From: an uncultured Chitinophagales bacterium | Lineage (GTDB): Bacteria > Bacteroidota > Ignavibacteria > UBA10030 > F1-140-MAGs086 | NCBI GenBank assembly: GCA_964358705.1 | Contig: CAYHPL010000004.1 | Coordinates: 62,750 to 126,749, forward strand | DNA length: 64,000 nt | Direction of reading: 5' to 3' | Shown here: positions 3,846 through 30,873 of the stretch, one piece after another | How the letters are laid out: each line of letters starts with the position of its first letter | How positions within the stretch are numbered: the stretch's first letter is position 1 | Notes under the pieces: model-generated | What the model saw: only the letters and a program-made list of their open reading frames with translations | Databases searched by the model: none | Told to the model about the DNA's origin: nothing | Made by a program: the position numbers and the translations under genes

Positions 3846-4580
3846 GTGAAGGATAATTTTTCAGCGCAGGCAAAACTCTACGTGCAATTTCGTCCAGCGT
3901 ATCCTGCTGAACTTATTGCATTTATTCTCTCCGTTGTTGAACAAAAAAATATTGCGTGGGACTGCGGAACAGGGAACGGACAAATTGCAGCCGCGCTTGC
4001 AGAATATTTTCGCACCGTGTACGCAACCGATATCAGTGAACGGCAAATCGAAAACGCACTACAGAAAAAAAATATTATGTATCGCGTTGAAGCCGCAGAG
4101 AGCACTTCTTTTCCGGATGAATTTTTTGATGTCATCACCGTTGCGCAGGCAATTCATTGGTTTGATATTGAGAAATTTTACTGCAACGCGCAACGGACAT
4201 TGAAAACCAATGGAATACTTGCAGTCATCGGTTATTCTCTTCCTCGCGCGGATGAAAAAATAAATGCAATCATTGATGATTTCTATTCCCGCACACTCAA
4301 CTCATACTGGGATGCAGAGCGAAAATATATTGATGAATTGTATCAGACAATTCCATTTCCGTTCAGAGAAATTTCGTCCCCGCAATTTTCCATCACGTAT
4401 GAATGGCGTTTGGAAAATATGCTTGGCTATTTGCAAACGTGGAGCGCTGTGCAAAATTATGCAAAGCGGAATAATGTAAATCCTGTACATGCAATTGTAA
4501 ATGATGTGCAGCAATGCTGGAAAGAAAATGAACTGAAGCGCATCACTTTTCCCACGCTGCTGCGCATCGGAAGGAAATAA
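3846..4580 (+). CDS. Class I SAM-dependent methyltransferase (small-molecule type)
   Basis: Motif I WDCGTGNGQ, followed by an acidic post-I residue (YATDIS) and AQAIHWF. The GTG start lies 1 nt after the preceding stop. There is no NPPY/DPPY motif, so it is not a DNA N6-methyltransferase. Confidence 0.75.
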   Translation: MKDNFSAQAKLYVQFRPAYPAELIAFILSVVEQKNIAWDCGTGNGQIAAALAEYFRTVYATDISERQIENALQKKNIMYRVEAAESTSFPDEFFDVITVAQAIHWFDIEKFYCNAQRTLKTNGILAVIGYSLPRADEKINAIIDDFYSRTLNSYWDAERKYIDELYQTIPFPFREISSPQFSITYEWRLENMLGYLQTWSAVQNYAKRNNVNPVHAIVNDVQQCWKENELKRITFPTLLRIGRK

Positions 4581-4620
4581 AAAAAGGCGATGCAGAATTT
4601 CTTCCGTATCGCCTTTCGTG
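4578..4620. terminator. Hairpin terminator between convergent genes (member of a repeated terminator element)
   Basis: aaaaaaa-GGCGATGC-agaatttcttcc-GTATCGCC-tttcgtg. The A-run on one side and T-rich run on the other allow termination in both directions. Confidence 0.65.
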
Positions 4621-4672
4621 CGTTCTTCCAATGGAAATTAAGTGCTACGTATTTCAAGAATGCGTAGCACTT

Positions 4673-4710
4673 AAAAACTAATCCCCCTTGTAAAGGGGGT
4701 TAGGGGGATT
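4673..4710 (-). terminator. Rho-independent terminator immediately after the 903-aa gene
   Basis: Minus strand: AATCCCCC-(15 nt)-GGGGGATT-ag-TTTTT. An alternative CCCCCTT/AAGGGGG pairing is possible. A further 10-bp perfect hairpin lies at 4640..4672. Confidence 0.6.
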
Positions 4711-4711
4711 T

Positions 4712-7423
4712 CTATTTCATCAGCATCATTTTCTTTGTTGCAGAAAAATTTCCTGCGGTGAGTTTGTAGATGTACACACCGCTCGAAAGTTTCTTTGCAT
4801 CGAATACTATTTCGTGATACCCTGCTGCTTTGAATTCATTTGAAATGAGATTTATTTCTTTTCCTAAAATACTAACAATTTTCAATGTTACATTTGCATC
4901 CACCGGCAACGCAAATTTAATTGTCGTTGTCGGATTGAATGGATTTGGATAGTTTTGCTCAAGGGCAAACTCTTTGGGGAGTTCGCGCAGATTTCCTGTG
5001 TGGATTTTCTGCTCATTATTTTCATACACTGTAAATGAAACAGAATTTGATGGTTGCGATAAGTTTCCTGCAACATCAATCGTTTTTACGTGGTAGTACA
5101 CCGTTGTTGGCTCCCCGGGTGCATCGAGATACTCATTATCATCTATGAAATCATTGGTTGATGTGATGCCAATGTATGTCCAGGGACCAGTATCTCGCTT
5201 CTTATATATTTTATATTTCTGCGTTGGCAGATCTGATTCAAGTGAAACATCCCACGTAATGCGCGGATGATTGATGAGTTCAGGATCTTCAACATTGCTT
5301 CGAGCATTTTTCGGCGCTTCCGGCGGAGGATTAATACGATACAGACCTTTCGCTGTCGCGGCATAAATAATTGAGTCATTGCTGTTATTTCTTCGCAAAT
5401 CATAAATCGGCGTTGGAAGATTTCCCGTTACATCTGTCCAGGTTGTACACGCATCTGCAGTTTTAAATATTTTTCTCCCATTGGAAGATATTACCCACAA
5501 ATAATCTCCTGATGTCGGATAACTCGGATGCATAAGAATTTTTGTTACTGTATCACTACGTGTGAAAACGGGATTCCAATTACTGCCGGAATTTTCGGAT
5601 TTCCATAAACAAATAGAATCTGATACCAATGAAATATCCGAACTTGCATATACTATAGATGGAACTCTGATATTTAAAGCCACATCATAGACGGTGCGGT
5701 TTTCATCATAGTTCATCGGTGAATTTGGTAATGTCCATTGCGCCCAATAATTTCCTGAATTTGTCGTTTTATACAGACCAAATCCATACGAGCCGACATA
5801 ATATTTCTCTGTTTGTTGTGTTGCTCCCGATGTATCAAGCGCTATGGCTAAGAGTGTTGGTCTATACGTCGAATTAACTATTACTTCTTCCCAACTATTT
5901 GTTGCTCCATAATTTCCATTCGCAAAAAAATTGCTAGTACTACCAGCATTTCCGTTATTACCAACCATATACAACTTATTCGTAGCAACAGGGTCAACTA
6001 CTGCATCAAAAAAGCAAACATTCCACGCAGAAGAAGCAGCACCTGTATAAGAACTTTGCCACGTTTTTCCCGAGTCAGTGGAACGGATAAATTTCGCTGT
6101 GTCCCCCATTTTTCCCGCCGCAAATGCATACTGCGAGTTCGATGAATGCAGCAACATAAATTCTCCGTCAAAATTTTTATCATTCGTGCCACTTGCATCT
6201 ACACTCTGCCATACTGTATTCGGATTGCGCCAGACTGCCGGATAGTTTTCAGTCGTTGCCATTTGTAAATTTCCTCTGACACTTGCAGATGAAATTCCTA
6301 ATTTTTTAATATTGATATTGATGTCTGCCCAATCTGTTCCGGTGTTCGTGGTTTTGTACAGACTTCTGTACGACCCTGCATATACACGCGCTGAACTTTG
6401 CGGACTGACTGCGACAACATTGATGGAATCATCATACATTCCGCTGTCATACTTTGTAAAATTACTGCTACCCGATGGTTTGATGCAGAGTCCTTTATTG
6501 GTCGCAACATACACATTACTCCCGCTTGTTTTGATGTCGTAAATATGCACATTGGAAACAGGGAGTGAAACGATTGTCCACGAACTGCCATCCGTTGAGT
6601 GCAGTAATTTACTGTACACTGATTCTTTTGCCGCATACAAATGAATGTCTTCCTCAAACTGATACACACCGATTGCCGTTATTGTATCATTTTTCAATCC
6701 GAGCAAACACCAATGCGAACCCGCATCGGGAGAGTAAAATACACCGCCAGTGGTATCACTGGGTCCAAATACATTCATTGTTTTATTATGTCCCTCGATG
6801 GGATGAGAGCCCGCCGCCCACACTTTCTGATTATTACCAGAAAGTGTTGTGATTGCATTTACATCTGTTTTTACATCGCCAAAAAAGTAAGTAACGTGAC
6901 TCCAAGAATAACCAATGTCGTAACTTCTGTACATTGAGTAGTATAAAGAATCTTTTTCGTACCCTGCAAACATCAGTGCAGAATTCGCTTTCGCGATTTC
7001 GATGGATGTATGGTAAAGCGCGGAATTACTGTTTTTATCCGTCCAGGCACTTCCGCCGTCCGTGCTGAGCTTCAATTTTCCGCTCACTGATGCTAAAACT
7101 ATATTTGTATTCGTAAAAGCGCATACGACATTTACCGGCGAGGTAATCGTAGAACTACCTATTTGCGTCCACGATGCGCCGCTGTTCACCGATTTCAGCA
7201 AGCGCGTAGATTCAATTGCGTATAATGTATCCGCAGAACTTCCCGACGTTCTGTTCCCGACCGAAATATCTGTAACGGAATCTGCTCGCCACGGACCGTT
7301 CATATCTGTCCAGTTCCATGTTTGCGCAGAGACCTGCGAAGTAAATTGCGCCATTACGGCACAACAAAGTAATAATATTACCAATGCATGCGATGCATTG
7401 ATTTTTACTGTTATAGAATGCAT
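4712..7423 (-). CDS. Secreted BNR/Asp-box tandem beta-propeller protein (sortilin/VPS10- or GH74/Ycf48-like) + Fn3-like domain + T9SS CTD (903 aa)
   Basis: Signal peptide present. At least 9 Asp-boxes (SVNSGASWT, STDGGSAWT, SPDAGSHWC, STDGSSWT, TTNTGTDWA, STDSGKTWQ, TTNSGNYWA, SENSGSNWN, TADACTTWT). The CTD reads LEQNYPNPFNPTTTIKF...GVYIYKL...KKMMLMK. It is a paralogue of 15173..17878. Confidence 0.8.
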   Translation of the reverse strand: MHSITVKINASHALVILLLCCAVMAQFTSQVSAQTWNWTDMNGPWRADSVTDISVGNRTSGSSADTLYAIESTRLLKSVNSGASWTQIGSSTITSPVNVVCAFTNTNIVLASVSGKLKLSTDGGSAWTDKNSNSALYHTSIEIAKANSALMFAGYEKDSLYYSMYRSYDIGYSWSHVTYFFGDVKTDVNAITTLSGNNQKVWAAGSHPIEGHNKTMNVFGPSDTTGGVFYSPDAGSHWCLLGLKNDTITAIGVYQFEEDIHLYAAKESVYSKLLHSTDGSSWTIVSLPVSNVHIYDIKTSGSNVYVATNKGLCIKPSGSSNFTKYDSGMYDDSINVVAVSPQSSARVYAGSYRSLYKTTNTGTDWADININIKKLGISSASVRGNLQMATTENYPAVWRNPNTVWQSVDASGTNDKNFDGEFMLLHSSNSQYAFAAGKMGDTAKFIRSTDSGKTWQSSYTGAASSAWNVCFFDAVVDPVATNKLYMVGNNGNAGSTSNFFANGNYGATNSWEEVIVNSTYRPTLLAIALDTSGATQQTEKYYVGSYGFGLYKTTNSGNYWAQWTLPNSPMNYDENRTVYDVALNIRVPSIVYASSDISLVSDSICLWKSENSGSNWNPVFTRSDTVTKILMHPSYPTSGDYLWVISSNGRKIFKTADACTTWTDVTGNLPTPIYDLRRNNSNDSIIYAATAKGLYRINPPPEAPKNARSNVEDPELINHPRITWDVSLESDLPTQKYKIYKKRDTGPWTYIGITSTNDFIDDNEYLDAPGEPTTVYYHVKTIDVAGNLSQPSNSVSFTVYENNEQKIHTGNLRELPKEFALEQNYPNPFNPTTTIKFALPVDANVTLKIVSILGKEINLISNEFKAAGYHEIVFDAKKLSSGVYIYKLTAGNFSATKKMMLMK

Positions 7424-7500
7424 AAAGTTTATTCCTTTATATAAGGGTTATAGAAATTAGTGTTAATTAACTGTTTCCTTATATTTGAAGTAGTTTTTTC

Positions 7501-7599
7501 TGCGGCGGAAATAAAACACCCGTTGCAGAGCGGACGGTGAGCGGGAGAGTCTTCTTCGGAATCGCTCAATTCAGTGAATCGGACACTCCCCTCGCCGCA
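7501..7599 (-). other. GC-rich, self-complementary ~100-nt core inside the 514-aa/903-aa intergenic region
   Basis: TGCGGCG (7501..7507) can pair with CGCCGCA (7593..7599), and inner segments GGGAGAGTC/GACACTCCC are also complementary. The flanks are conserved with copy 2, whose core 17970..18066 differs in sequence but is also GC-rich (two GGCGCC hexamers). Confidence 0.35.
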
Positions 7600-7687
7600 T
7601 TATTTCCTTTGCATTGAAAACATTGCGAAAACGCGGAAACAAAAAATACCTTTTCGCACGTTCCTTCAAAACTTGTTTCGATAGACT

Positions 7688-7707
7688 GACAGACAAGAAT
7701 GTCTGTC
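7688..7707 (-). promoter_or_regulatory. Conserved 3' hairpin motif, copy 1 (after 514-aa gene)
   Basis: GACAGAC-aagaat-GTCTGTC followed by CTACC, about 15 nt from the stop. No adjacent U-tract. Confidence 0.5.
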
Positions 7708-7722
7708 CTACCTGTAAAATTT

Positions 7723-9252
7723 TTATTTCATCAAAATCATTTTCCTCGTCAATATGCTTGTTTTGTTTTTATCATTTGTTACGGAAAGTCGGTAAAAATA
7801 TATTCCGCTTGCCAGTCCTTCCGCATTCCATTCCGCAGTATATTTTCCTGCTTCCTTTTTTTCACTGACTAATGTTGCGACTTCTTTCCCGAAAATATCA
7901 TACACTTTTAATGAAACATTCCCAAGAGCCAACAGCGAAAAGCCAACAGCCGTGTGCGGATTAAACGGATTGGGATAATTTTGTTCAAGCGTAATACTTT
8001 GCGGGCTGTGTTCATCCTCTGTAACCGGAGTCGTTATAAATGTTCCCCGTCTCCCATAGAGTTGCCACGTCTGTAATGTGGAGTCAAATTCTGACCATGT
8101 AATAAACGCATAAGAGGATGTTATAATAGCTTTTGCCAGCACTCCTTCTTCACTAATGTACATCGGCGTACACCAGTCCCCTCCCGCATTGTAACTGATA
8201 CCTGCCTGTACACCATTGAAAAACATACTATCTACTGTCCAGGCACATATTATTTTTTCTCCATAATAAAATGAATTTGCAGCAAAACCAACCGGATGTT
8301 CTGTCAGCAGGTATTCTTCCTCCCATGATTCTCCGCCTGTCGTGCTGTACCGTCCGAGTATGCTGCATCCTGCTAATCCCATACATCCGTATTTGGTATC
8401 CTGCCATGTAATATTTAAATTTGTATTCCCATCTGATGATATAGATTGATCGGCAGTATTGTGATCGGAGTCTATTGTAGAAATGATGATGGAATCGTGC
8501 CACGTGTCCCCAAGGTCGGTACTTTTCTGATAGAACATCATAAACTCCAATACTCCTGAAATACCCCATCGCTTGCTCAGGTGCAGTGCGTTTTGCGTCA
8601 GCGTATGGGTAGGAAATTCTGCTGTTGTTAGTTCAGAAGAAAAACTCCACGACACCCCTGCATTTGTAGTTCGCAAGAGTTGCATTCTGTTGCAATGCAA
8701 AGCATAAACGGAAAATATAATTGTATCTCCCTTAATAATCGGATACTCTCTCGCACTGATTGTGTCTGTTGTAACAGAAGGCAAGGTAAAAGTTTCTCCC
8801 TTATCAGAACTTTTTTGCATCCAGAGCGCGTTTCCATGTACAACGCTGTCATCCATCTCTCTGAAAAAAACAAAGAGCATTTCTTTGTTTGCTAAAATAA
8901 ATTCATCATACGGCAAACGGTTATTTGAACCAAGCAGTAAATTTTTAGTATGAGAAAACGTTCTTCCTGTATTTGTGCTTTTTATGTAGGGAATCGTTGG
9001 TGTATCACGCCAGACATGCCAGATACAATAAATGATATTTTCATCACTGCTATCCAATGCAAGCCGCGCAGAAAAGTTATTGTAATGCGGATAATCGGCG
9101 GAGAGATGTATTTTAGGTTCCCATGCAATGCCGCACATCGTATCAATTTGTGCGTATGTCGTAAAATTCAGGAGGAGACAGAGAGAGGCAAGCAGAGCCA
9201 GTGTAGCCGTGCTGCAAGTGAACAACGAAGAAATGTAACGAGTACTGAGCAT
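7723..9252 (-). CDS. Secreted BNR/Asp-box (sialidase-fold-like) protein with T9SS CTD (~509 aa)
   Basis: Asp-boxes STNTGRTFS, SSDKGETFT, TTNAGVSWS, STDLGDTWH, STTGGESWE. CTD reads LEQNYPNPFNPHTAVGF...GIYFYRL...RKMILMK. I placed the start at ATG 9252 (MLSTRYISSLFTC), matching the paralogue 18155..19666. The ORF track extends to a TTG at 9267. Confidence 0.8.
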   Translation of the reverse strand: MLSTRYISSLFTCSTATLALLASLCLLLNFTTYAQIDTMCGIAWEPKIHLSADYPHYNNFSARLALDSSDENIIYCIWHVWRDTPTIPYIKSTNTGRTFSHTKNLLLGSNNRLPYDEFILANKEMLFVFFREMDDSVVHGNALWMQKSSDKGETFTLPSVTTDTISAREYPIIKGDTIIFSVYALHCNRMQLLRTTNAGVSWSFSSELTTAEFPTHTLTQNALHLSKRWGISGVLEFMMFYQKSTDLGDTWHDSIIISTIDSDHNTADQSISSDGNTNLNITWQDTKYGCMGLAGCSILGRYSTTGGESWEEEYLLTEHPVGFAANSFYYGEKIICAWTVDSMFFNGVQAGISYNAGGDWCTPMYISEEGVLAKAIITSSYAFITWSEFDSTLQTWQLYGRRGTFITTPVTEDEHSPQSITLEQNYPNPFNPHTAVGFSLLALGNVSLKVYDIFGKEVATLVSEKKEAGKYTAEWNAEGLASGIYFYRLSVTNDKNKTSILTRKMILMK

Positions 9253-9458
9253 AATGTTACCAATCAATTATTACAAAAATTTGATATTAATGATTACATC
9301 ACTACTGAACTAACATTCTCTACATTCATCAGGTTATGATGTAATCGTAAAAAAACTGGGCGTAATATACAATTCAATACAATTCAATACAATTCAATAC
9401 AATTCAATACAAGAAAATTTTGAAAATATTTTTTGAAAACGGACTCATTTGTCTTTAA
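9214..9458 (-). promoter_or_regulatory. Conserved upstream block, copy 1 (first 13 codons + 5' leader + tandem repeat + distal TTGAAAA repeats)
   Basis: Nearly identical to 19628..19872, with only a handful of mismatches by eye over the ~150 nt from taatgattacatcac to tattttttgaaaa. The flanking coding sequences are strongly diverged. It contains an inverted repeat ATTACATCA/TGATGTAAT in the leader. Confidence 0.7.
9367..9412 (-). repeat. Perfect 10-bp tandem repeat, 4 full units plus partial units (plus strand AATTCAATAC; gene-sense GTATTGAATT)
   Basis: Read directly: atac aattcaatac x4 aa. It lies about 115-160 nt upstream of ATG 9252. Confidence 0.95.
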
Positions 9459-9459
9459 C

Positions 9460-9495
9460 AAAAAAAAGGCGACACAGAATTACTTCCGTATCGCC
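9460..9495 (-). terminator. Rho-independent terminator after the 1642-aa gene (repeated element)
   Basis: Minus strand: GGCGATAC-ggaagtaattct-GTGTCGCC-TTTTTTTT. Confidence 0.75.
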
Positions 9496-9528
9496 TTTCG
9501 TGCGTTCCCCCAAATGAAGAGTATTTTT

Positions 9529-12500: not shown

Positions 12501-14457
12501 AACCTCTCCTATAATTGACTTCGTATTTATTCGCCGCTTTTCCTGCAACGATAGCGCCGCCGGTAATAGTGTTGTTTTCAAATGTAAGATTTCCGCCTTC
12601 TACAGTTGTAATCGCTTCAACGCCGCAATAATTATTTCCGCTGACGGAAACGTTCATTACGTCAATTGTTGTTCCTGTTTTGCGAACACGATTACTTCCA
12701 CGCACTTGGAGTTCGTATCTGTTTCCCGCTTTATTCTCTTTCGGAATTCCGGGATTGCAATCGGTACATTCGCCGGAAGTAAATAAGTTGTTATCGAATT
12801 TTACATCCGTGTAATCGGCAATATCAAACGTTCCATCTCCATCGGTAAAATGATTGTTTGAAATACTTAATGGCGCACCAGTCCAAAGTTCATCGTGAAC
12901 ATAATCTTGAAGCGCTAATCTACCAAGCGACATTCCGGAAATATTATTGTTATCAAACGTGAACGAGTGAACGCTCAATAACGATTCGGGAAGTGAAAAG
13001 AATGTTGGTTCGCTTAAAAATCCGCCGCTTTCGTAGTCAACAGTGTTGTTTGCAGTTCGGATTGCATCTACATTGGTCGGAAGTTCACTTCGTTTTGATT
13101 TTAACTGCATTGCAGAGGGTGAAGGACCAGTGAATGATGGCACGAGTGTAATAGTGTTTCCGATGGATTGAATTTTCGGAAATTTAATCGAGTCGAGAGG
13201 AATTCCACCAGTGTTTTCGTTATCGAATTCAATATCAATTCCTTTCGGAGTATTGGAAATGGTATTCCCGTCTATGCGATACGTAATATCGAAGAAACTA
13301 TCAACGTGCCAACCGCCGGCAATGGTTCGGATAGCGCTTCCTGTTCCATCGAGGTCAATCAAGTTTCCATACATTCCGACATCTTTATTCGGATTTCCAA
13401 CGACAGAAATTCCATCGCCGCCCGCCCAATAAATATCGTTGTCGTAAATAGTAATTTGGGTTTTTGCAAAAGCATCATTATCAATGGAAATATCAATTGC
13501 ATTTTCTGCGGGAGTAGAAGAAAATCGCGGCGTTCCGTTTTTGCCAAGAAGTTTTAACATCGAAGCGCTTGCACGTCTTGCTTTCTTTCCGCTCAAGGTA
13601 TTTGATGAACCGATAGTAATCGAGGCAAGATTATGCGCATTTGGAATATGCACGGAAGACGTATAAACGGAATCCACTCCACCGAGAATGTGAATTTCTC
13701 CGCCTTCTTCTGTATTGGTAATTACTGTTCCTACATCACAATACAATACGTTGTTATCTTGCTCTGTAATATTTGTTCCGCCGCTCACAGAAATTCCAGT
13801 TGTTGTTGCAGAACCGTAAACCGTGTTGCCTTCTATCATTGCAACTCCTGCTGTTGCAGATTTTGGTCCTGCGCAAGCAGAATATTCAATATTGATTGCA
13901 GTTGTCTGCACATTGATAATTAAACAACCAAAGACATTTACTATACCGCTGTTATCTGCGTGCACATCATATCCGCGTTCCGCGGTTGCTCCCGTAACGC
14001 CACCGCTTTGTATATACACATTACCGTTTTGTTCGCAATCATCAACACGGACTGCGGCTTTCCAGATTTCTGCAGGATTGGGAAACCAAATACAATTGTA
14101 AATCGTAATATCGCGAACTCCTTCGGCTTTAAATGCAATGGAATCGCTAACAAATCCTGGAGGAAGCTGTGAAATGTTGATTTCCGGTTTTTTACTGCCG
14201 CCCTGAAACATAGCAAAATAACCGGGTTGCGATGTTTGCGGATTTAGTTTCAGTTCAAAATCTGTATAAGTCGTATCCATCAGCATCAGCGAAACGGAAT
14301 CTGCGATACCGTTTGTATTGATGTCATCAAGTGCGACACGGAGCGTGGGATAATCGTAACCACCGCTGATGCCAACGGTTTTCGTTACGTTTGAAGCAAA
14401 ACTTGATTGCACGAACAGCGCAAGCAAGAGCGTTACGAATAGTATGAATTGTTTCAT
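9529..14457 (-). CDS. Giant secreted parallel beta-helix repeat protein + SdrD-B-like domain + conserved pre-CTD module + T9SS CTD (1642 aa)
   Basis: Signal peptide MKQFILFVTLLLALFVQSSFA. Short N/G/T-rich PbH1-like coils run throughout (NNTI.G, GNTF.N, NNSF.N). Seven ~64-aa repeats carry AGNKYEV.VRRGSK..KT. The SdrD-B-like segment reads ISGTVYNDADGDGTKDESESGLNGWSV. The CTD reads LTQNYPNPFNPQTAIGF...KKMMLMK. Confidence 0.8.
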   Translation of the reverse strand: MKQFILFVTLLLALFVQSSFASNVTKTVGISGGYDYPTLRVALDDINTNGIADSVSLMLMDTTYTDFELKLNPQTSQPGYFAMFQGGSKKPEINISQLPPGFVSDSIAFKAEGVRDITIYNCIWFPNPAEIWKAAVRVDDCEQNGNVYIQSGGVTGATAERGYDVHADNSGIVNVFGCLIINVQTTAINIEYSACAGPKSATAGVAMIEGNTVYGSATTTGISVSGGTNITEQDNNVLYCDVGTVITNTEEGGEIHILGGVDSVYTSSVHIPNAHNLASITIGSSNTLSGKKARRASASMLKLLGKNGTPRFSSTPAENAIDISIDNDAFAKTQITIYDNDIYWAGGDGISVVGNPNKDVGMYGNLIDLDGTGSAIRTIAGGWHVDSFFDITYRIDGNTISNTPKGIDIEFDNENTGGIPLDSIKFPKIQSIGNTITLVPSFTGPSPSAMQLKSKRSELPTNVDAIRTANNTVDYESGGFLSEPTFFSLPESLLSVHSFTFDNNNISGMSLGRLALQDYVHDELWTGAPLSISNNHFTDGDGTFDIADYTDVKFDNNLFTSGECTDCNPGIPKENKAGNRYELQVRGSNRVRKTGTTIDVMNVSVSGNNYCGVEAITTVEGGNLTFENNTITGGAIVAGKAANKYEVNYRRGSKVGKTTASDDTLTANVKNNHFCSVDVLIASEDVDMNFENNTATSGTAFAKATNKYELQFRRSSRFNKSESDSMFYASMKDNSFDGYDVTVNDTDVALVMTGNTFNNATPVFNKAGNKYEVSVRRGQRFSKTAFSEIQLVLEMADNDFSGGDVVFNVDDFVSTIENNTFNASSATNKAANKYEVNFRRGSKIGKTSSSVATVEDMFTYNNNSVIGYDVAISIDDSSDVASSVTMDGNSFDGIAPVSSKFPAGNKYEIAVRKSKNYQKTTSVGQEDFLTYTKNTHTNFGEGGLIGLEDVCATLDSNTFDGESANKMPAGNKYEVVARKSKNYQKTSSATEYCLAISNNSFTNLSDGGLLATLTNEADDTMNVGFGANTFSNNEGNGLEISIDSGSVTSTILKNIFADNTGNGILLRNEPRIDVWVNRFRAITEEDKFNNNGTNEFINNGGDGIHLEGNIVVEGLNYQNFSGNTGYNLYNGTPNDIDATNNWWGTTNAVTIAEKIYDRTDSVSFGTVDFTPFRAEEISSLTGTISGTVYNDADGDGTKDESESGLNGWSVILSSGGIAADTATTSESGEYSFNALELAEYSLAVVLQTNYVGTQNSDGAEVSFSTNNATVNFGVFADTYTFRTFKADVALTAKPVKLKYKSGALLEQPNTATVMENFFLRVGKLGATFLGYEQTGDAAKTHGWILYKKAADLGKMFTAAHTEKYYPIDSLRPTGKKAKKLSKAIKADKKTYNNIMWEQGIIFNLNMKASAKGITPKGFGALVLDTTFTLAGRQLERMTLSAIGKYMDSLMTYWDELNIDNADDYANLQSFAENILRPINTRFWTTFASTNYKVDSLGIVVRDDSVAGKKNVYAVTLLGALSANQSGIVKRIPGTKDETRMLATDGIIPTEFALTQNYPNPFNPQTAIGFSLLAVSNVSLKVYDVLGREVATLISNETMDAGIYNVSFDANIISSGVYFYRLTAKDVDTEEQFSSVKKMMLMK
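9811..10617 (-). other. Conserved uncharacterised pre-CTD module, copy in beta-helix protein
   Basis: FRTFKADVALTAKPVKLKYK...HGWILYKKAADLGKMFTAAH..YYPIDSLRPTGKKAKKLSKAIKADKKTYNN...FNLNMKASAKGITPKGFGALVLD...IGKYMDSLMTYW. Confidence 0.8.
11482..12738 (-). repeat. Seven in-frame tandem repeats (~190-215 bp, ~64 aa) inside the 1642-aa beta-helix gene
   Basis: Protein motif at aa ~578, 642, 705, 768, 832, 904 and 969: AGNRYELQVRGSNRVRKT, AANKYEVNYRRGSKVGKT, ATNKYELQFRRSSRFNKS, AGNKYEVSVRRGQRFSKT, AANKYEVNFRRGSKIGKT, AGNKYEIAVRKSKNYQKT, AGNKYEVVARKSKNYQKT. On the plus strand the string ttcatatttatttcc recurs with this period. Confidence 0.9.
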
Positions 14458-14475
14458 AAGTGTACCTAAGATAGA

Positions 14476-14501
14476 TGTGAGTAAATAATATGTGAGTAAA
14501 A
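14476..14501 (-). repeat. Direct repeat 2 x 11 bp (ATGTGAGTAAA), 15-bp period, just upstream of the 1642-aa gene start
   Basis: Read directly. It shares the core (G)TGAGTAA with 15021..15059. Confidence 0.8.
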
Positions 14502-14518
14502 AATTATTTTGTAAAACG

Positions 14519-14538
14519 GATAACGCCGTCGTTATCCT
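14519..14538 (-). terminator. Hairpin after the receiver-only gene
   Basis: GGATAACG-ccgt-CGTTATCC is a perfect 8-bp stem. The T-tract is weak on the minus strand (GTTTTAC) and stronger on the plus strand (TGTTTTCTGTTTTTT). Confidence 0.5.
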
Positions 14539-14550
14539 GTTTTCTGTTTT

Positions 14551-14919
14551 TTAAAAAATTGTTTGTGTTCGTTCTGCTTTTGCTATCGTTAATTTCAATT
14601 CCGCAATGTTTATCGGTTTCAATAAATAATCTAACGGGTTATATTTTATCGCCTTCACCGCATATTGCGAGTGTGCTGTAACAAACACAACTTTAAAATC
14701 AATGCGCTCAAACGACTGCAGCAAATCAAATCCTGTCTGAAACGGCATCTCGATATCTAAAAAAACTATATCGGGATTATGTGTTTCAATGGCATGTTTA
14801 CCGGTTGTTGCAGAATCTGCTAATGCAACTATTTCTACATTTGTGCAATATTTTTGCAGCATTGTTTTCAGCACTTGCTGACCTTTATGTTCATCGTCAA
14901 TAATTACGGCGCGAAGCAT
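14551..14919 (-). CDS. Stand-alone response-regulator receiver domain (LytTR-family receiver lacking the LytTR DNA-binding domain)
   Basis: The 122 aa align along their whole length with the receiver half of 19948..20694 (IIDDE, FLDIEMP, VVFVTAH..YA.KAIK...LDYLLKP). The protein stops right after the linker and no LytTR segment follows. Confidence 0.8.
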   Translation of the reverse strand: MLRAVIIDDEHKGQQVLKTMLQKYCTNVEIVALADSATTGKHAIETHNPDIVFLDIEMPFQTGFDLLQSFERIDFKVVFVTAHSQYAVKAIKYNPLDYLLKPINIAELKLTIAKAERTQTIF

Positions 14920-15020
14920 TCTTTAAAAATTTCTAATCGGAAATTAAATCTGTATAGTAAAAAATTCTATGGTAAAATTACTGTTCTCTTTGTTCTTCGC
15001 AAATGAAAAAAAAAGGAAAT

Positions 15021-15059
15021 TGAGTAAGCGGCAGGTTTTGTGAGTAAGCGGCGGGATTT
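15021..15059 (-). repeat. Direct repeat 2 x 19 bp (TGAGTAAGCGGC(A/G)GG(T/A)TTT), 20-bp period, upstream of the receiver-only gene
   Basis: Read directly. It lies about 100-140 nt upstream of ATG 14919. Confidence 0.8.
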
Positions 15060-15102
15060 ATTTAGTATTGAACAGAGAGAAAATGTGGGTTTTGACAAAA
15101 AT

Positions 15103-15137
15103 AAAAAAAAGCGACACAGAATTACTTCCGTATCGCC
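15103..15137 (-). terminator. Rho-independent terminator after the 901-aa gene (repeated element)
   Basis: Minus strand: GGCGATAC-ggaagtaattct-GTGTCGC-TTTTTTTT. The sequence gcgacacagaattacttccgtatcgcctttcgtgc is identical to 9469..9503. Confidence 0.75.
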
Positions 15138-15172
15138 TTTCGTGCAAATGTAAATGCTGGATAATTAAATTG

Positions 15173-17878
15173 TTATTTCATCAAGAGCATCTTCTTTGTT
15201 GCCGAATAATTTCCTGCGGTGAGTTTGTAGATGTACACACCGCTCGAAAGTTTTTTGGCGTCGAACGGGACTTCATAGTAGCCCGCTTCTTTTACGCCAT
15301 TCACTAATGTTGCAATTTCTTTTCCGTTGACATCAAAAATTCTCAAAGAAACAGTTGCATCAACCGGCAATGCAAATTTAATTGTTGTTGCCGGGTTGAA
15401 TGGATTCGGATAGTTTTGTGAGAGTGCAAACTCTTTGGGGAGGTCGCGTAGATTGCCGGTACGTATTTTCTGTTCGCTGATTCCATTATTGCACATAAAT
15501 GAAATTGTGTTGGATTGACCTGATACATTGCTGCCGTTGTCTATCACTTTTACATAATAATATATTCTTACTGGATCTTCGTCCGTGAGAAGTTCTTCTG
15601 AAATATCTGTATAGTTTGTTGTTGATACGGTCGCTTTTTCTATCCACGTTCCAATTGTTCCTCGTTTCTTGAACACTTTGTATTTCAGAGAAGGAAGGTC
15701 TGTTTCAGGCGATGCATCCCATCTGAAACTTGGATGCACAGACGAACCGGGATTATCAGTATCAAGCTGAAGGTTTTTAGGTGCTTCAGGTTTTGGATTT
15801 ATTTTATAAACGCCCTTTGGTGTGCTTACATAAATAAGAGTATCATTAAGTGGGTCGCGAACAAGTTGGTATATTGGAGTTGGAATCGTATCGGTAACAT
15901 CACTCCACGTACTTCCGCCATCAGCAGTTTTGAAAATTTTTCTTCCGTTCGCCGCTATTACCCAAAGATATTTTGATGAATCCGGATACGTCGGGTGCAT
16001 CAATATTTGTTTCACTGTATCCGAACGTGATATCATATTACTCCAGCTTGAACCAGAGTTGGTTGATTTCCAAAAACAGGTTGAATCTGTAGAAGAATAA
16101 CGTTCTCCTCCTGCATAAACTACCGATGGAACTTTAGGATTCAATGCAACCGCATACACTGTTCTGTCTTCATGCGTTGTACCAAGATCCCACTGAGTCC
16201 AATCTGTTCCGTTATTTGTGGTTTTCCATAAACCTTTTGCATCCACTCCTGCATAAATTTTCTGTGAATTATTATTTACAGCATTTGTTGAATCTATCGC
16301 AAGGGAAAAAATATCTTTGTTTTCACCCGGCGGTACTCGTGTGAATGAAGACCACGAAACACCGTCATCCGTGGATTGATAAAGATTATTATGGTCATAC
16401 ACTCTCCCTCCGCAAAGTATTCTCTGTGAATTTTTCGGGTCAAGTGCAAATGTATTGAACCATGAACTGTAATTCAAAGATATTTTATTATTCCAGTCTT
16501 TACCGTTGTTGCTTTCATATATCACGCCGTCATTGCCATTGCTGACACCACATAAAAATCTGTGCGTTCCGTTTTTATGCCAGAAGGTATTGTTTACTGT
16601 TGTCGTGATATCTTCTTCAATTTCATAGTTTGTCCATGTACTGTTTTTATATTGACTTACAGAATTGATTAAAGCGTTACTGCTTACTACCGAATCACGA
16701 TATACTGAAAGCGTTGTACTCCCAGCCATTCCAATCCCTCGGCTTATATCTTCCCAGACTTGCGACCCAATATTCTGAAAAACTCCGGTAGTTGTGCCGA
16801 CAAAAAATGCATCATCACTTCCTTCCGGCTGTATCAATGCTATGGATTTTGTATTCAGTTCATATAATCCTGAATGAACTCCTTCCCGTGCGAAAGATGT
16901 ACAGGCTAAGTTGTCACTGTAATACACGCCATCATTCGTTGCTACATATACTTCTCCGGTGGTTTTATCTACTGTAATGCCATAAATTTTATCTACTGCG
17001 GACGGTAAACTATATGCGTTTTGCCAGCTTTCACCATCGTTTGTTGAATATTTTACTCCTGCCTCACCGCCACTCACGGGCCTGTCTCCATATCCTGCAT
17101 ACACTACTGAATCTCCATACGTCGGGTCATAGTAATACGCCATTGCGGTTACGTTTCTTCCGCCAAGACCACTCTCGCTCCAGTTCACTCCGCCATTTGT
17201 GGAAAACCACACGCCGCGAAATTTTGGAGGTGGCGGGTCTTCTACTCCTGCTTTTAAATCTCCGTCTTCATATTGACTGCCTCCCAACCATACAAGATTT
17301 GGTTTTGTTGGATGAAACACAAGAGACGTAACTGATGTGCGGTTGACAAAGTATGAATCCGCTGCAAATGAATTTCCAAAATCATTACTTTTCCAGAGAG
17401 TCGAAACTCCCGGAATTGAATCTATACCAAGCCACACGCGGTTTGCATCCGATTCATGCGGTGCAAATACAAGACTGCGGGGAACAAGAGTTGAATAATT
17501 TTCAATTTTTACACCCCAACTTGTTCCGGAATTTGTACTACTCCAAATCTCGTGTCCATTATTAGTTACAACATACTTCGGACTATCAATATTACACGCA
17601 ACCACACGGGGGTTTGTAATAGTATTGATATGGTTCCATTGTTCGCTGGCGAAGTCATATTTTATTAAAGTGGTGCCGGAATCGGCGGCATACAAAAACA
17701 GTGTATTGGTACTATCATACGCTGTGGCAATCTGAAGAACAGTATTTGCTCTCCAGGGTCCGTTCAAACTGCTCGTAATTTGCTGAGCATTGGCAACATT
17801 CGCAAACGTCAATAATAGCATTGATGCGAAAGCGCTTATAATACTGAAGCATACGCTTCTCATAGATAATTTTTTCAT
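15173..17878 (-). CDS. Secreted BNR/Asp-box tandem beta-propeller protein + Fn3-like + T9SS CTD (901 aa), paralogue of 4712..7423
   Basis: Asp-boxes TNSGTSWG, STNGGVNWS, STNDGESWQ, STDDGVSWS, TTNNGTDWT, STNSGSSWS, TADGGSTWS. The C-terminal half is collinear with the 903-aa protein (LWVIAANGRKIFKTADGGSTWSDVTDTIPTPIYQL). The CTD reads LSQNYPNPFNPATTIKF...KKMLLMK. Confidence 0.8.
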   Translation of the reverse strand: MKKLSMRSVCFSIISAFASMLLLTFANVANAQQITSSLNGPWRANTVLQIATAYDSTNTLFLYAADSGTTLIKYDFASEQWNHINTITNPRVVACNIDSPKYVVTNNGHEIWSSTNSGTSWGVKIENYSTLVPRSLVFAPHESDANRVWLGIDSIPGVSTLWKSNDFGNSFAADSYFVNRTSVTSLVFHPTKPNLVWLGGSQYEDGDLKAGVEDPPPPKFRGVWFSTNGGVNWSESGLGGRNVTAMAYYYDPTYGDSVVYAGYGDRPVSGGEAGVKYSTNDGESWQNAYSLPSAVDKIYGITVDKTTGEVYVATNDGVYYSDNLACTSFAREGVHSGLYELNTKSIALIQPEGSDDAFFVGTTTGVFQNIGSQVWEDISRGIGMAGSTTLSVYRDSVVSSNALINSVSQYKNSTWTNYEIEEDITTTVNNTFWHKNGTHRFLCGVSNGNDGVIYESNNGKDWNNKISLNYSSWFNTFALDPKNSQRILCGGRVYDHNNLYQSTDDGVSWSSFTRVPPGENKDIFSLAIDSTNAVNNNSQKIYAGVDAKGLWKTTNNGTDWTQWDLGTTHEDRTVYAVALNPKVPSVVYAGGERYSSTDSTCFWKSTNSGSSWSNMISRSDTVKQILMHPTYPDSSKYLWVIAANGRKIFKTADGGSTWSDVTDTIPTPIYQLVRDPLNDTLIYVSTPKGVYKINPKPEAPKNLQLDTDNPGSSVHPSFRWDASPETDLPSLKYKVFKKRGTIGTWIEKATVSTTNYTDISEELLTDEDPVRIYYYVKVIDNGSNVSGQSNTISFMCNNGISEQKIRTGNLRDLPKEFALSQNYPNPFNPATTIKFALPVDATVSLRIFDVNGKEIATLVNGVKEAGYYEVPFDAKKLSSGVYIYKLTAGNYSATKKMLLMK

Positions 17879-18118
17879 AATAATAATTTGAAAAAGTTAA
17901 TAAATATTGTTAATTAACGGTTCCATTGTGCCAAAGGCATACCTTTCGGTATATTTGAAGCGGATTTTTGGCGGAAGCATAACAATGCCTCTGTCTCAAA
18001 CACGGTGTACAGGCGCCTTTCCTTCCGGATATTGCAACCCTGTGAAAAGAGGGGCGCCATCCACCGTTAAAAAACTACACGAAACCAAATTCGTTTTTTT
18101 CACTTCAAAACTTGTTTC

Positions 18119-18138
18119 GACAGACAGGAATGTCTGAC
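18119..18138 (-). promoter_or_regulatory. Conserved 3' hairpin motif, copy 2 (after 503-aa gene)
   Basis: GACAGAC-aggaat-GTCTGAC followed by CTACC. Confidence 0.5.
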
Positions 18139-18154
18139 CTACCAGTAAAAATTC

Positions 18155-19666
18155 TTATTTCATCAAGAGCATTTTCTGCGTGAGTATTGTTTGCTTCCCA
18201 TCATTGGTTACTGAAGTAAGACGGTAAAAATACATTCCACTCGCAAATTCTTCCGCGTTCCAATCCACGTTGTATTTACCTGCTTCATATTGTTTGTTAT
18301 TGATGAGTATTGCAACTTCTTTTCCGAACATATCGAATATTTTTATTGTAATTTTGCTGACTGCTGATTGCTTAAAGCTGATTGCTGTTTGCGGATTAAA
18401 CGGATTCGGATAATTTTGTTGTAATACAATATTCGATGGAATATTCTCTATTGGCTCTTTTACGGAGGTGCGCACTATTTCTCCACGTACATAATACATC
18501 TTCAAAGTGATTGCGTGCGAGAACACCACGTGGATTGCATTAGGTGAAATTGCTATTTTCGCATCTCCTGTTTTGGGAACTCCCGTATGGTGAACCGGAC
18601 AATATGTTTTTCCTCCGTCAAAACTTACACGTGCATAGACTTCGTACTCTACATCATTCCCGCCGCTCCAGGTAGAGGCAACTATATTTCCCTGTATGGC
18701 TACATCAGAGGTAATTCCATTTTGAATTTCGGTTAAAAGTTGGTCATCGTACCATTGCTCACCTCCTGAATCACTTCGTCTGCTCACGATACCGCACCCT
18801 AACGAACTGAAACATCCTCCGAATTTTGTATCGCGCCATGTTGCAATAATATTATTTCCTTCTGCCGCTACTGTTGCAATGGATGAACCAGCACCGTCGT
18901 GAGAGGAAAGGAACATTTTTTTTGTCCACGAAAACCCTAAATCCGTACTTTTCCAATATAAGATTTCCGGTGAAAGTAATGGAATACCGGTAGCGCTCAT
19001 TACAACGTGTAGTGCACCAGAGCCAAGTGCACATACCGGAACAAAACCAAGAATAGTATCCGTAGAAAAATTCCATGAATTTCCACCAGTGGTTGATGAT
19101 GCGATAACTGGAAGTATGACATAACCTGGAATAGGACGATAGTTAATACCCAATGCAATTGTATCATCATTAATAGTTACAGGGTTTTTTGATAACTCCT
19201 CTGGAAAAATTTGATTCGGTAAATTCCATGAAAGTCCTTTGTTGCTACTCTTTATAAACTGGATATAATCTTTTCCAGTACTATCATTAACAAATTGATA
19301 AAACAAATACAGCGATTGTGATGTTGGGATAATTTGATGATGAGATGCATGACTTCTTGGAGTATTCCATAGTTCCATTACTTCACTCCATTGCTCACCT
19401 TCCGTTGTAGAACGCATATATGGCAATTTTGTATATCCACTGCTCCAAGTTAAATGTACAATATTTCCTTCTGTTGCAATTTGAGGTAAACCTCTGTCAT
19501 TCATTAGTACGACCGGCTCGTGCCAGATAATGCCGCAGGCGGTATCCTGTGCATACGTATATGAGACACAAAAGGGAATATTTAAAAGGAGTGTGAGGGA
19601 GGCAAATCGCGCTATTTTTGCAATGGCGCAAGTGAACAACGAAGAAATGTAACGAGTACTGAGCAT
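18155..19666 (-). CDS. Secreted BNR/Asp-box protein with T9SS CTD (503 aa), paralogue of 7723..9252
   Basis: The first 13 residues are identical to the paralogue (MLSTRYISSLFTC). Asp-boxes STTEGEQWS, SSNKGLSWN, STTGGNSWN, STDLGFSWT, SDSGGEQWY. The CTD reads LQQNYPNPFNPQTAISF...GMYFYRL...QKMLLMK. Confidence 0.8.
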   Translation of the reverse strand: MLSTRYISSLFTCAIAKIARFASLTLLLNIPFCVSYTYAQDTACGIIWHEPVVLMNDRGLPQIATEGNIVHLTWSSGYTKLPYMRSTTEGEQWSEVMELWNTPRSHASHHQIIPTSQSLYLFYQFVNDSTGKDYIQFIKSSNKGLSWNLPNQIFPEELSKNPVTINDDTIALGINYRPIPGYVILPVIASSTTGGNSWNFSTDTILGFVPVCALGSGALHVVMSATGIPLLSPEILYWKSTDLGFSWTKKMFLSSHDGAGSSIATVAAEGNNIIATWRDTKFGGCFSSLGCGIVSRRSDSGGEQWYDDQLLTEIQNGITSDVAIQGNIVASTWSGGNDVEYEVYARVSFDGGKTYCPVHHTGVPKTGDAKIAISPNAIHVVFSHAITLKMYYVRGEIVRTSVKEPIENIPSNIVLQQNYPNPFNPQTAISFKQSAVSKITIKIFDMFGKEVAILINNKQYEAGKYNVDWNAEEFASGMYFYRLTSVTNDGKQTILTQKMLLMK

Positions 19667-19872
19667 AATATTATAATTAAATACTATAAAAATTAGATAC
19701 TAATGATTACATCACCACTGAATAAACATTCTCTACATTCATCAGGTTATGATGTTATCGTAAAAAAACTGGGCATAATATACAATTCAATACAATTCAA
19801 TACAATTCAATACAATTCAATACAAGAAAAGATTGAAAATATTTTTTGAAAAAAGATTAAGTTGTCTTTTGA
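19628..19872 (-). promoter_or_regulatory. Conserved upstream block, copy 2
   Basis: See 9214..9458. The 39 nt gcaagtgaacaacgaagaaatgtaacgagtactgagcat, which include the start codon, are identical in both copies. Confidence 0.7.
19778..19825 (-). repeat. Second copy of the same 10-bp x4 tandem repeat
   Basis: tacaattcaa x4 + tacaa, with the same unit and copy number as 9367..9412. It lies about 112-160 nt upstream of ATG 19666 and about 120 nt downstream of the LytTR regulator stop. Confidence 0.95.
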
Positions 19873-19898
19873 AAAAAATATTATACTCAGTGAAACAA

Positions 19899-19918
19899 GA
19901 CATACAAGAATATCTGTC
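19899..19918 (-). promoter_or_regulatory. Conserved 3' hairpin motif, degenerate copy 3 (after LytTR regulator gene)
   Basis: GACATAC-aagaat-ATCTGTC followed by CGACC. A near-palindrome ACCAATGTACATCGGT follows at 19921..19936. Confidence 0.4.
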
Positions 19919-19947
19919 CGACCAATGTACATCGGTACTTCTTTCTT

Positions 19948-20694
19948 TTACACAAGCAGCAATCGCTTCATCAGTTCCTCTTTGTGCCTGCGCGAAACTT
20001 CAACAGTGGAATTATCGGTGAGTATAATTGTTCCGCCATCGCCTTTTAGGTATTGCTTAATATGCAGCGCATTGACAAGATGCGATTGATGAATACGGAT
20101 AAAATTGTACTCCGTGAGAAGTTGCTCAAAATCTTTCAGCGTCTTTGCCGATGTGTGTTTTTCTCCGTTCGCAAGAAAAATTGTTGTGTAATTGCTTTCC
20201 GATTCGCAGCGCAGAATATCATTGATTTGCACAAACACAACGCCTATACGTGTCGGCAATCCGATTTTACTGTGCGCGCTTTTCATCGTCTGCAAAAAAC
20301 TTTCTACTGCAACGGGTGACTTTCCTGCTTTTATTTTTTCTTCTGCACGTGCTACGGCATCTTTTAATTCTTTGAGATTCACCGGCTTCAGCAAATAATC
20401 CAATGCGGACATTTTTATTGCCTGTATTGCGTAGTTCTCGTGCGCGGTTACAAATATGACCTCGAAATCAATTTTTCCGAATGATTGCAGTAATTCCAAC
20501 CCGGATTCTTTCGGCATTTCCACATCAAGAAAAACCAAATCGGGAGAACACTCCGCAATTGCTTTTCTTCCCGCATCTGCAGATTCTGCCATTGCAACTA
20601 TTTCCACTGTTCCGCTGCAATACTTGTGTAGCATTTGCTGCAAAACACTGCGTCCCCTTTTTTCATCATCTATTATTATTGTTCGTAGCATCAT
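19948..20694 (-). CDS. LytR/AlgR (LytTR) family response regulator
   Basis: Receiver domain (IIIDDE, FLDVEMP, LLKP) followed by a LytTR domain (IGVVFVQINDILRCESESNYTTIFLANGEKHTSAKTLKDFEQLL..FIRIHQSHLVN). The start lies 9 nt downstream of the kinase gene. Confidence 0.9.
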   Translation of the reverse strand: MMLRTIIIDDEKRGRSVLQQMLHKYCSGTVEIVAMAESADAGRKAIAECSPDLVFLDVEMPKESGLELLQSFGKIDFEVIFVTAHENYAIQAIKMSALDYLLKPVNLKELKDAVARAEEKIKAGKSPVAVESFLQTMKSAHSKIGLPTRIGVVFVQINDILRCESESNYTTIFLANGEKHTSAKTLKDFEQLLTEYNFIRIHQSHLVNALHIKQYLKGDGGTIILTDNSTVEVSRRHKEELMKRLLLV

Positions 20695-20703
20695 AGTATT
20701 TTT

Positions 20704-24923: not shown

Positions 24924-25008
24924 AACACTTATCAGGTTTTGTTCATTTTTTTCAGAAGAAAGATAAGAGAAGTTTTCTCATTAATCAATCACACGAAAGT
25001 TGTATTTT

Positions 25009-28221: not shown

Positions 28222-28273
28222 TTTCGTGCTGTTGCTTTTTTCCTCTTGTTACAGAGAAAAAAAATCGAGGATT

Positions 28274-30778: not shown

Positions 30779-30820
30779 TGTTCTATTGTTTTTATGTTTT
30801 GGGAAATTAATTTACTATAA

Positions 30821-30862
30821 CGAAAAGATGCTGCGCACCCGATTCGAAAGGCACGCAGCATC
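30821..30862 (-). terminator. Terminator after the FG-GAP cargo gene
   Basis: Minus strand: GATGCTGCG-(18 nt)-CGCAGCATC followed by TTTTCG. Confidence 0.6.
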
Positions 30863-30873
30863 TCGTTTCTATT

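Follow-up and report, generated by a model that had tools for sequence, protein, structure and literature searches.

Two collinear gene cassettes are encoded on the minus strand of the 64-kb stretch of DNA analysed here (the window, to whose positions all coordinates refer), which is chromosomal DNA of an uncultured organism of the Fibrobacteres-Chlorobi-Bacteroidetes (FCB) group. In each cassette a gene for a protein of ~505 amino acids (aa) is followed by a gene for one of ~900 aa (copy 1, 4712-9252; copy 2, 15173-19666). The cassettes are ancient paralogues and not a recent segmental duplication. The explanation that we favour, with a probability of roughly 0.7, is that they are old paralogous cassettes of type IX secretion system (T9SS) cargo genes with diverged cores, the promoter/leader, C-terminal domain (CTD) and terminator modules of which have been kept alike within the genome by concerted evolution. 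Under this explanation the propeller-coding cores would have diverged to near saturation and three short modules would have been held near-identical within the genome, most likely through intragenomic recombination (gene conversion). These would be an expression module of ~250 nt (A/T tracts, (TTGTATTGAA)n with a TATATT box, a 17-bp stem-loop in the 5' untranslated region (5'UTR), the start codon and 13 signal-peptide codons), the CTD-coding 3' ends together with the hairpin that follows the stop codon, and a common intrinsic terminator. As both cassettes carry the same signals for transcription, translation start and export, they are probably co-expressed, co-regulated and co-secreted, and the ligand-facing domains would diversify under this shared expression and secretion.

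The two large proteins are 37% identical over 933 columns, end to end (BLASTP, E 1e-162), and the two small proteins are 35% identical over 526 columns (E 6e-86). An initial annotation of this DNA had described the proteins as homologous but diverged, and this holds over their full length; the peptides that it quoted are in register in the BLASTP alignment. Full-length collinearity at the protein level identifies the two cassettes as true paralogues. Identity at four-fold degenerate sites is 0.42 for the small genes and 0.36 for the large genes, where composition would give 0.28 by chance, and in interior windows it lies between 0.0 and 0.5, mostly 0.2-0.35, that is, at chance level. The protein closest to the copy-1 small protein is P0001 (61% identity), followed by P0002 (46%), while the protein closest to the copy-2 small protein is P0013 (44%); at 35%, copies 1 and 2 are no nearer to each other than either is to any other member. 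When leader and CTD are cut away and a neighbour-joining tree is built on the propeller cores alone, copy 1 pairs with P0001, copy 2 pairs with P0013, and both pairings have 100% bootstrap support. Because each copy pairs with its own orthologue from another metagenome, the split predates the lineages, and the duplication happened before the window organism and that of JGI samples 3300045115/6 diverged.

At the DNA level the cassettes form a mosaic. Similarity between the copies in blastn is confined to four tracts, namely the 5' module (86% over 293 nt, E 2e-97), the CTD-coding end of the small gene with its hairpin (74% over 329 nt), the 3' end of the large gene (78% over 308 nt) and the terminators (91-98%). 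In the 5' module 189 of the 213 non-coding columns (9253-9465 against 19667-19878; 88.7%) are identical, as are all 39 nucleotides of the first 13 codons of the small genes, synonymous positions included. The initial annotation had staked its case on the collinearity of the flanking non-coding elements, and the 5' block, post-stop hairpin, spacer flanks and terminator are indeed collinear.

Paralogues that are more alike than orthologues within bounded tracts are the signature of concerted evolution. This pattern is seen when the window is compared with two cassettes of a second lineage (JGI samples 3300045115/6), L003 of the copy-1 type and L017 of the copy-2 type. Identity of the 5'UTR and leader is 0.90 between the two window copies and 0.95 between L003 and L017, compared with 0.54 between copy 1 and L003 and 0.57 between copy 2 and L017, and the tree of the cores is discordant with that of the modules. 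The leader peptide MLSTRYISSLFTC is common to both window copies and P0002, and MKLLHYISSPCSS is common to P0001 and P0013. Paralogues also have in common the sequence of the 20-nt hairpin loop, of the linkers and of the synonymous positions in the 13 codons, all of which are lineage-specific. The 5'-module and small-gene CTD tracts are also recovered by blastn between L003 and L017 (L003 stops before the large-gene 3' end). Since the modules track the genome and not the gene, they must have been homogenised after the split. Leaders have also been shuffled among the large genes: L017_902 combines a leader of the copy-1 type with a body of the copy-2 type. Between the copy-1 large protein and the partner of P0001, identity is only 26%.

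Homogenisation is also seen outside the cassettes. Three neighbouring cargo genes (28274-37396) with unrelated N-terminal domains are 80-87% identical in DNA over ~281 nt of CTD and 3' flank, and their CTDs are 75-88% identical as protein. Near-identical CTD DNA in three otherwise unrelated cargo genes suggests that module homogenisation is general in this genome. Gene conversion is the most likely homogenising mechanism.

The initial annotation read the locus as a diverged segmental duplication. The paralogy that this implies stands; the treatment of the non-coding parts as mere leftovers does not, given that the modules follow genome rather than gene and that the synonymous sites are near-saturated. 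A version of this reading in which regulator and cassette were duplicated together recently, the coding regions then changing fast under diversifying selection and the non-coding blocks being the least-changed remnants, seems to us quite improbable. Some features are as it would predict: the order of genes across the locus (response regulator, small, large, stand-alone receiver, the gene for a 1642-aa protein, small, large) is the one expected from tandem duplication of a response regulator-small-large unit, the two receivers are 60% identical and the non-coding elements are collinear. DNA collinearity, however, is not unit-wide but limited to the four short tracts, both small proteins have closer orthologues elsewhere (61% and 44%, against 35% between copies, with 100% bootstrap support), a tree that by itself largely refutes this version, and the four-fold degenerate sites, which diversifying selection should spare, are near-saturated, including those of the receiver pair (0.43). 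Moreover, L017 has neither the tandem arrangement nor a LytTR gene.

Joint duplication of the regulator and the cassette as one unit, also proposed in the initial annotation, is possible. Its gene order was borne out, with copy 2 directly after the kinase/LytTR pair and copy 1 after the 1642-aa gene, and this order fits a joint duplication; all other support is absent. In relatives the survey of synteny gave no backing for a regulator-plus-cassette unit, the neighbours being other two-component genes or none. The copy-2-type cassette of L017 lacks both an upstream LytTR gene and a neighbouring cassette of the copy-1 type; the gene on its upstream side is divergent, and a HisKA_3/LuxR system lies 3.5 kb downstream. 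A HisKA kinase adjoins the cassette in L005, a HisKA_3/LuxR system and a non-orthologous receiver are found in L002, and near the cassettes of L006 and L032 there are no two-component genes. The receiver-only genes beside the cassettes in L002 and L017 were rejected as orthologues of the 122-aa receiver of the window, since they align only partially (58-67 aa) at 24-34% identity.

The 122-aa protein was described in the initial annotation as a truncated paralogue of the 248-aa regulator. Homology to the receiver half of that regulator is clear (60% identity, E 2e-52), but truncation is not borne out, as the protein is an intact receiver that stands alone and retains the acidic pocket, D54, T81 and K103. 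Pfam identifies only a receiver domain, and tblastn with the LytTR half of the regulator found nothing significant downstream of the 122-aa gene; an apparent extension of 166 aa, seen at word size 2, was gone at default settings. At four-fold sites the receiver pair (0.43, n = 28) is as saturated as the cassettes, so that a common origin with the cassette duplication is neither shown nor excluded.

Both 5' modules contain a perfect (TTGTATTGAA)x4.6 array, and in shuffled sequence neither this array nor the similarity of the two blocks would arise by chance. TTGTA-type repeats running into a TATATT box are conserved across lineages (window, L001/L032, L005 and L017), in the form (TTGTATTGAA)4 in the window and (TTGTA)4 in L017 and L005, and are degenerate in L003; the motif has no further occurrence in the 64-kb window. 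After the box, CAGTTTTTT is likewise conserved across lineages. The repeat/TATATT element may be a promoter, and the features of the module that are conserved across lineages have probably been selected and not merely converted. In the 17-bp 5'UTR hairpin 94% of alignment cells are paired, slid controls collapse, and at four pairs both partners differ between the two module types. One U-G pair is invariant; this and other G-U pairs are compatible with the sense strand only, which suggests that the hairpin most likely acts in the 5'UTR of the mRNA. The whole 156-nt leader is of ordinary stability (z = -0.75). A search of Rfam 15 gave no match at the gathering score in the window and only chance-level matches (E > 1) in 9100-9560. 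The CUGAUGA in the hairpin loop was considered as a hammerhead and rejected, having no Rfam match and not being conserved in the second lineage. The loop also holds an upstream open reading frame of 11 codons, MNVENV(S/Y/C)SVVM (9300-9335 and 19713-19748), in the window-type modules and L001; it is not kept in the JGI-type module of the second lineage. A protein search with the 40-aa leader peptide gave no candidates, and the gapped DNA pattern CAGTTTTTT...ACATCAT...GTGATGTA had 0 matches in the contigs of GTDB-representative genomes, which places the genome of the window outside that set. In metagenome contigs the same pattern had 9 matches, in sequences unrelated to the module, and these were judged to be chance.

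The terminator and promoter block could be a small mobile or reused promoter element, inserted independently before the cassettes. Terminator and 5' module are contiguous at copy 1 and again at L001/L032, where the genomic surroundings are different, and promoter reuse has been documented in prokaryotes (PMC3575422), where, as here, near-identical promoter-bearing intergenic DNA precedes far more diverged coding parts. The present case differs in that the downstream genes are homologous, the block enters the coding sequence and it is confined to cassettes of this family. The block was seen upstream of homologous genes only and continues in frame into at least the first 13 codons, no terminal inverted repeats or target duplications common to the copies were found, and the 64-kb window has no other copy of the block, all of which makes such an element very unlikely. 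Still less probable, in our estimation, is that the block is a phase-variable switch, acting through slippage of the decamers or inversion between flanking inverted repeats. The number of full units does vary, with 4 in the window copies and 3 in L001/L032, and an imperfect inverted repeat, ACTGAGTATAATATT / AATATTATGCTCAGT, is present around the module of copy 2. Nevertheless, an independent assembly of the copy-2 locus (L031, 99.2% identity) has the same 4 units, the difference of 3 against 4 exists only between different loci, and a 10-bp unit keeps the spacing to the TATATT box constant. An inverton was rejected, since the inverted repeat is missing in copy 1 and L001 and the window has no recombinase gene. 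The repeat itself (core 14/15; 19658-19681 / 19868-19891) takes in the start codon.

Shared elements are also found at the 3' ends of the genes. The terminator element GGCGATACGGAAGTAATTCTGTGTCGCC-T8, a 28-nt stem-loop with a T-run, occurs three times, after both large genes and the 1642-aa gene, and a 20-nt hairpin, GACAGACATTCTTGTCTGTC, follows both small-gene stop codons; for each of these, 0 occurrences are expected from shuffles. In the form GTAG-GACAGAC-ATTCYT-GTCTGTC the post-stop hairpin follows the small genes of L006/7 and L017/18 too, with a degenerate version in L003/4, and so is kept in relatives despite a protein identity of only ~31-44%. It may serve as an intercistronic stabiliser or processing site. 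A 10-bp palindrome, GTTAATTAAC, lies ~40 nt upstream of both large-gene starts (~7465-7475 and ~17918-17928, minus strand) and was not seen in L017 or L032; it is possibly an operator or internal promoter element. Hairpin repeats of the GTCATT(G/C)CG... type (REP/MITE-like) occur in the spacers or upstream regions of related cassettes (L032 1922-2472, L017 2700-2790) and are absent from the window cassettes.

The 248-aa regulator upstream of copy 2 has a response-regulator domain (Response_reg, E 4.6e-21) and a LytTR domain (E 5.1e-20) in Pfam. Its neighbouring sensor kinase, with Reg_prop and Y_Y_Y domains, is of the glycan-sensing type, and it is a reasonable hypothesis that this adjacent kinase and regulator control the cassettes. 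A second Reg_prop/Y_Y_Y sensor kinase (HisKA_3) with a LuxR-type regulator is encoded just upstream of the LytTR system (24294-28080). Because HisKA_3/LuxR pairs also adjoin the cassettes in L002 and L017, such a pair is an alternative candidate regulator. The 122-aa receiver may act as a phosphate sink or competitor. Two pairs of direct repeats, GCCGCTTACTCA ~100 nt upstream of the receiver gene and TTTACTCACAT upstream of the 1642-aa gene, have a TTACTCA core in common, which links the receiver gene to the 1642-aa gene and not to the cassette. The classical LytTR site consists of 9-11-nt repeats, 11-13 nt apart (PMC4847170), and the GCCGCTTACTCA repeat, at 20 nt from start to start, matches this geometry. 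With their common core, both repeats are candidate LytTR-type sites of a separate small regulon, and the 122-aa receiver and 1642-aa genes look like a unit of their own; the 1642-aa gene does not belong to the duplicated one. As in the LytS/LytTR regulons of AgrA and YpdB/BtsR (PMC4847170, PMC4227749), a PF06580 His_kinase stands beside a receiver-LytTR regulator, upstream of target-like genes with direct repeats; a Reg_prop/Y_Y_Y periplasmic sensor domain and a 10-nt tandem array set the present locus apart from these.

The four proteins of the cassettes all score above the cut-offs for the type A T9SS CTD (Por_Secre_tail, PF18962 / TIGR04183), with 36.7-43.9 bits against 27 in Pfam and 34.9-41 against 23 in NCBIfam. 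By eye, all four have hydrophobic leaders with an A/Q cleavage context. At each of the four putative cleavage sites Ala is followed by Gln (YA/Q, SA/Q and NA/Q, e.g. 9150-9252 and 7330-7423), in agreement with the 'Q-rule' described for substrates of signal peptidase I in Bacteroidetes (PMC5837995). An AF2 model of the small-protein core (pLDDT 85.5) is a six-bladed propeller, whose top Foldseek matches are bacterial sialidases (E 6e-11, TM 0.5-0.6, 10-14% identity), and the small protein has Asp-box-like S-x-D-x-G-x-T-W motifs. The model of the copy-2 large protein is of moderate quality (pLDDT 72.8, pTM 0.57) and suggests two tandem propellers followed by beta-sandwich domains; top matches are GH74 enzymes (E 1e-21, TM 0.42-0.50) and PorZ (5m11). 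The fold of the copy-1 large protein is assigned through its homology to copy 2. Sortilin-Vps10 is above its cut-off in the copy-2 large protein only, and the NCBIfam F510_1955 glycosylhydrolase model gives 86-89 bits on the large proteins against a cut-off of 175, so that their sequence matches to BNR glycosyl hydrolases are weak. The BNR and Fn3 labels of the initial annotation agree with the propellers and beta-sandwich domains of the models, and fail in the Pfam terms from which they are taken: BNR_2 gives 27 bits for the copy-1 small protein, under the gathering score of 31.4, and no match for copy 2, and Fn3 was not detected in region 690-810 of the large proteins, even at E <= 10. The six-bladed Asp-box propeller, the putative tandem seven-bladed propellers and the type A CTD suggest, on the strength of the models, a likeness to GH33 sialidases, GH74 xyloglucanases and PorZ as T9SS cargo, unlike which the cassette proteins have 10-16% identity to solved structures and a sub-threshold BNR_2. 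The models point to secreted or surface-attached glycan-binding or glycan-cleaving propellers of unassigned specificity.

The signature of concerted evolution might also arise with no conversion at all, if purifying selection acted on shared regulatory DNA or RNA that co-evolves with a lineage-specific trans-acting factor (protein or small RNA). As would be expected, the window modules are 89% rather than 100% identical, and the lineages have the (TTGTA)n-TATATT core, CAGTTTTTT, the stems of the hairpin and the post-stop hairpin in common. Yet the hairpin loop, linkers and synonymous positions are lineage-specific and common to paralogues, and the homogenised CTD modules of unrelated neighbour genes point to a general recombination process. 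We therefore think selection by itself an unlikely explanation and prefer ancient paralogy with concerted evolution of the modules. Several observations weigh against that preference. L003 and L017 are separate contigs, linked only by two shared JGI samples, and the hairpin-containing module is known from two independent lineages only, so the signals of covariation and concerted evolution represent few events. Purifying selection is certainly at work as well, given that some of the module is kept between lineages; the effect of conversion could be imitated by co-evolution with a trans-acting factor, and at 89% identity any conversion was not very recent. In the putative promoter, TTGTAT-N17-TATATT is under the threshold of a sigma-70 scan, and this arrangement fails in the versions with a 5-bp repeat. 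The 10-nt tandem array does not fit the usual geometry of LytTR repeats, and the link to LytTR comes from adjacency in this genome alone, which is not conserved in relatives. In the small proteins, the (Y)RLP/FRIP-like Arg of many family members is replaced by Thr in copy 1 and Lys in copy 2.

Several metagenome-assembled genomes (MAGs) of uncultured, Ignavibacteria-like "Bacteroidota" also contain the gene pair. Full-length relatives of the small protein (30-61% identity), each followed by a ~900-aa partner, were found in L003/L004, L005, L006/L007, L017 and L032, and a profile of the small-protein core retrieves ~1,650 cluster representatives at E <= 1e-30. A scan of the proteins of genome contigs gave three full-length relatives only, with no informative synteny. 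L001/L032, from Hainich groundwater, is a third cassette type, with 46% (small) and 43.5% (large) identity to copy 1. It carries a window-type module of 88-95% identity, with the same terminator before it and 3 full decamers rather than 4, and probably represents a third paralogue, from the window genome or one very close to it. In L032 the cassette adjoins a type ISP restriction enzyme. Of the 159 kb of L031 (ENA ERZ1286166 contig_3762) only 3.8 kb matches the window (17268-21101); its flanks are unrelated to the window and its gene calls are fragmented, which makes it either a rearranged strain or a long-read assembly that is noisy or chimeric.

The closest published parallel that we found is the lpl tandem paralogue cluster of Staphylococcus aureus, in which many tandem copies have a conserved central tract within the open reading frame (ORF) (Tsuru & Kobayashi 2008, PMC2568036). 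By analogy, both systems would consist of paralogues for exported proteins in which short conserved tracts serve as recombination sites, variable parts are shuffled and the ORF is not the evolutionary unit. Here, unlike in lpl, the conserved tracts are a 5' regulatory/leader module and a 3' CTD/terminator, there are two copies in the window and two genes per unit, and recombination is deduced from two lineages only. A bolder extension is that the modules form a portable 'expression scaffold', in which recombination at the conserved ends would reassort propeller cassettes and leaders between loci, under one regulator reading (TTGTA)n and with a new cis-regulatory 5'UTR stem-loop. We consider this doubtful; if such cassette exchange were real, uncultured Ignavibacteria-like bacteria would have a system for diversifying their T9SS surface and secreted proteins. 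The phenomena are known ones, and the locus is a fresh example of them, tidy rather than unprecedented, in a family of T9SS cargo operons that is widespread but uncharacterised. It illustrates how a duplication may be misdated from sequence similarity, with the promoter/leader and terminators the youngest parts and the genes old paralogues. It also defines this previously undescribed family and brings with it candidate cis-elements, namely the (TTGTA)n-TATATT promoter core, the 5'UTR stem-loop and the intercistronic hairpin. Should co-expression and recombination prove to be driven by the modules, this would be a useful model locus for homogenisation of regulatory modules and diversification of cargo in uncultured FCB-group bacteria; failing that, it is an ordinary paralogous gene pair.

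The features of the locus are listed in Table 1. All ORFs and both spacers of the initial annotation are present on the minus strand at the positions and lengths that it gave.

Table 1. Features of the two cassettes and their surroundings, in window positions
Feature	Position	Strand	Description
Terminator element downstream of copy-1 large gene	4579..4636	-	Stem-loop 4586-4613 and T-run
Separate G/C hairpin	4683-4699	-	Immediately 3' of the copy-1 large-gene stop codon
Copy-1 large gene	4712..7423	-	903 aa; putative signal peptide, predicted GH74/PorZ-like double beta-propeller, beta-sandwich, T9SS type A CTD
Copy-1 spacer	7424..7722	-	299 nt; post-stop hairpin GACAGAC-ATTCTT-GTCTGTC at 7688-7707; palindrome GTTAATTAAC
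Copy-1 small gene	7723..9252	-	ORF 7723-9267, 509 aa from the ATG at 9252; putative signal peptide MLSTRYISSLFTC..., predicted six-bladed sialidase-like propeller, T9SS CTD
Copy-1 5' module	9214..9465	-	A/T tracts, array (9367-9412), TATATT box (9364-9369), CAGTTTTTTT, 5'UTR hairpin (arms 9287-9301 and 9337-9351), ATG, first 13 codons
Terminator element after 1642-aa gene	9461..9518	-	Directly abuts copy-1 5' module
1642-aa T9SS cargo gene	9529..14457	-	SdrD_B and CTD; between receiver gene and cassette 1
Repeat TTTACTCACAT x2	14475-14504	-	Period 15; upstream of 1642-aa gene
Stand-alone receiver gene	14551..14919	-	122 aa
Exact direct repeat GCCGCTTACTCA x2	15021..15052	-	Start to start 20 nt; upstream of receiver gene
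Terminator element after copy-2 large gene	15103..15160	-	
Copy-2 large gene	15173..17878	-	901 aa; Sortilin-Vps10/BNR repeats, GH74/PorZ-like double-propeller model, T9SS CTD
Copy-2 spacer	17879..18154	-	276 nt; post-stop hairpin 18119-18138
Copy-2 small gene	18155..19666	-	503 aa
Copy-2 5' module	19628..19878	-	Decamer array 19780-19825, TATATT box 19777-19782, hairpin ~19700-19764, ATG 19666
Receiver-LytTR response regulator gene	19948..20694	-	248 aa
Sensor kinase gene	20704..23757	-	1017 aa; Reg_prop repeats, Y_Y_Y, LytS-type His_kinase, HATPase_c
Homogenised CTD tracts	28271-28551, 30871-31151, 35165-35445		Unrelated N-terminal domains: SBBP propeller, FG-GAP, Kelch

The window as a whole has at least 12 T9SS cargo genes, and named relatives are MAGs of 'Bacteroidota bacterium', Ignavibacteriales and Melioribacteraceae. 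At its left edge (8-2308) it encodes a partial type I restriction enzyme R subunit with SWI2_SNF2, ResIII and T1R_D3-like domains.

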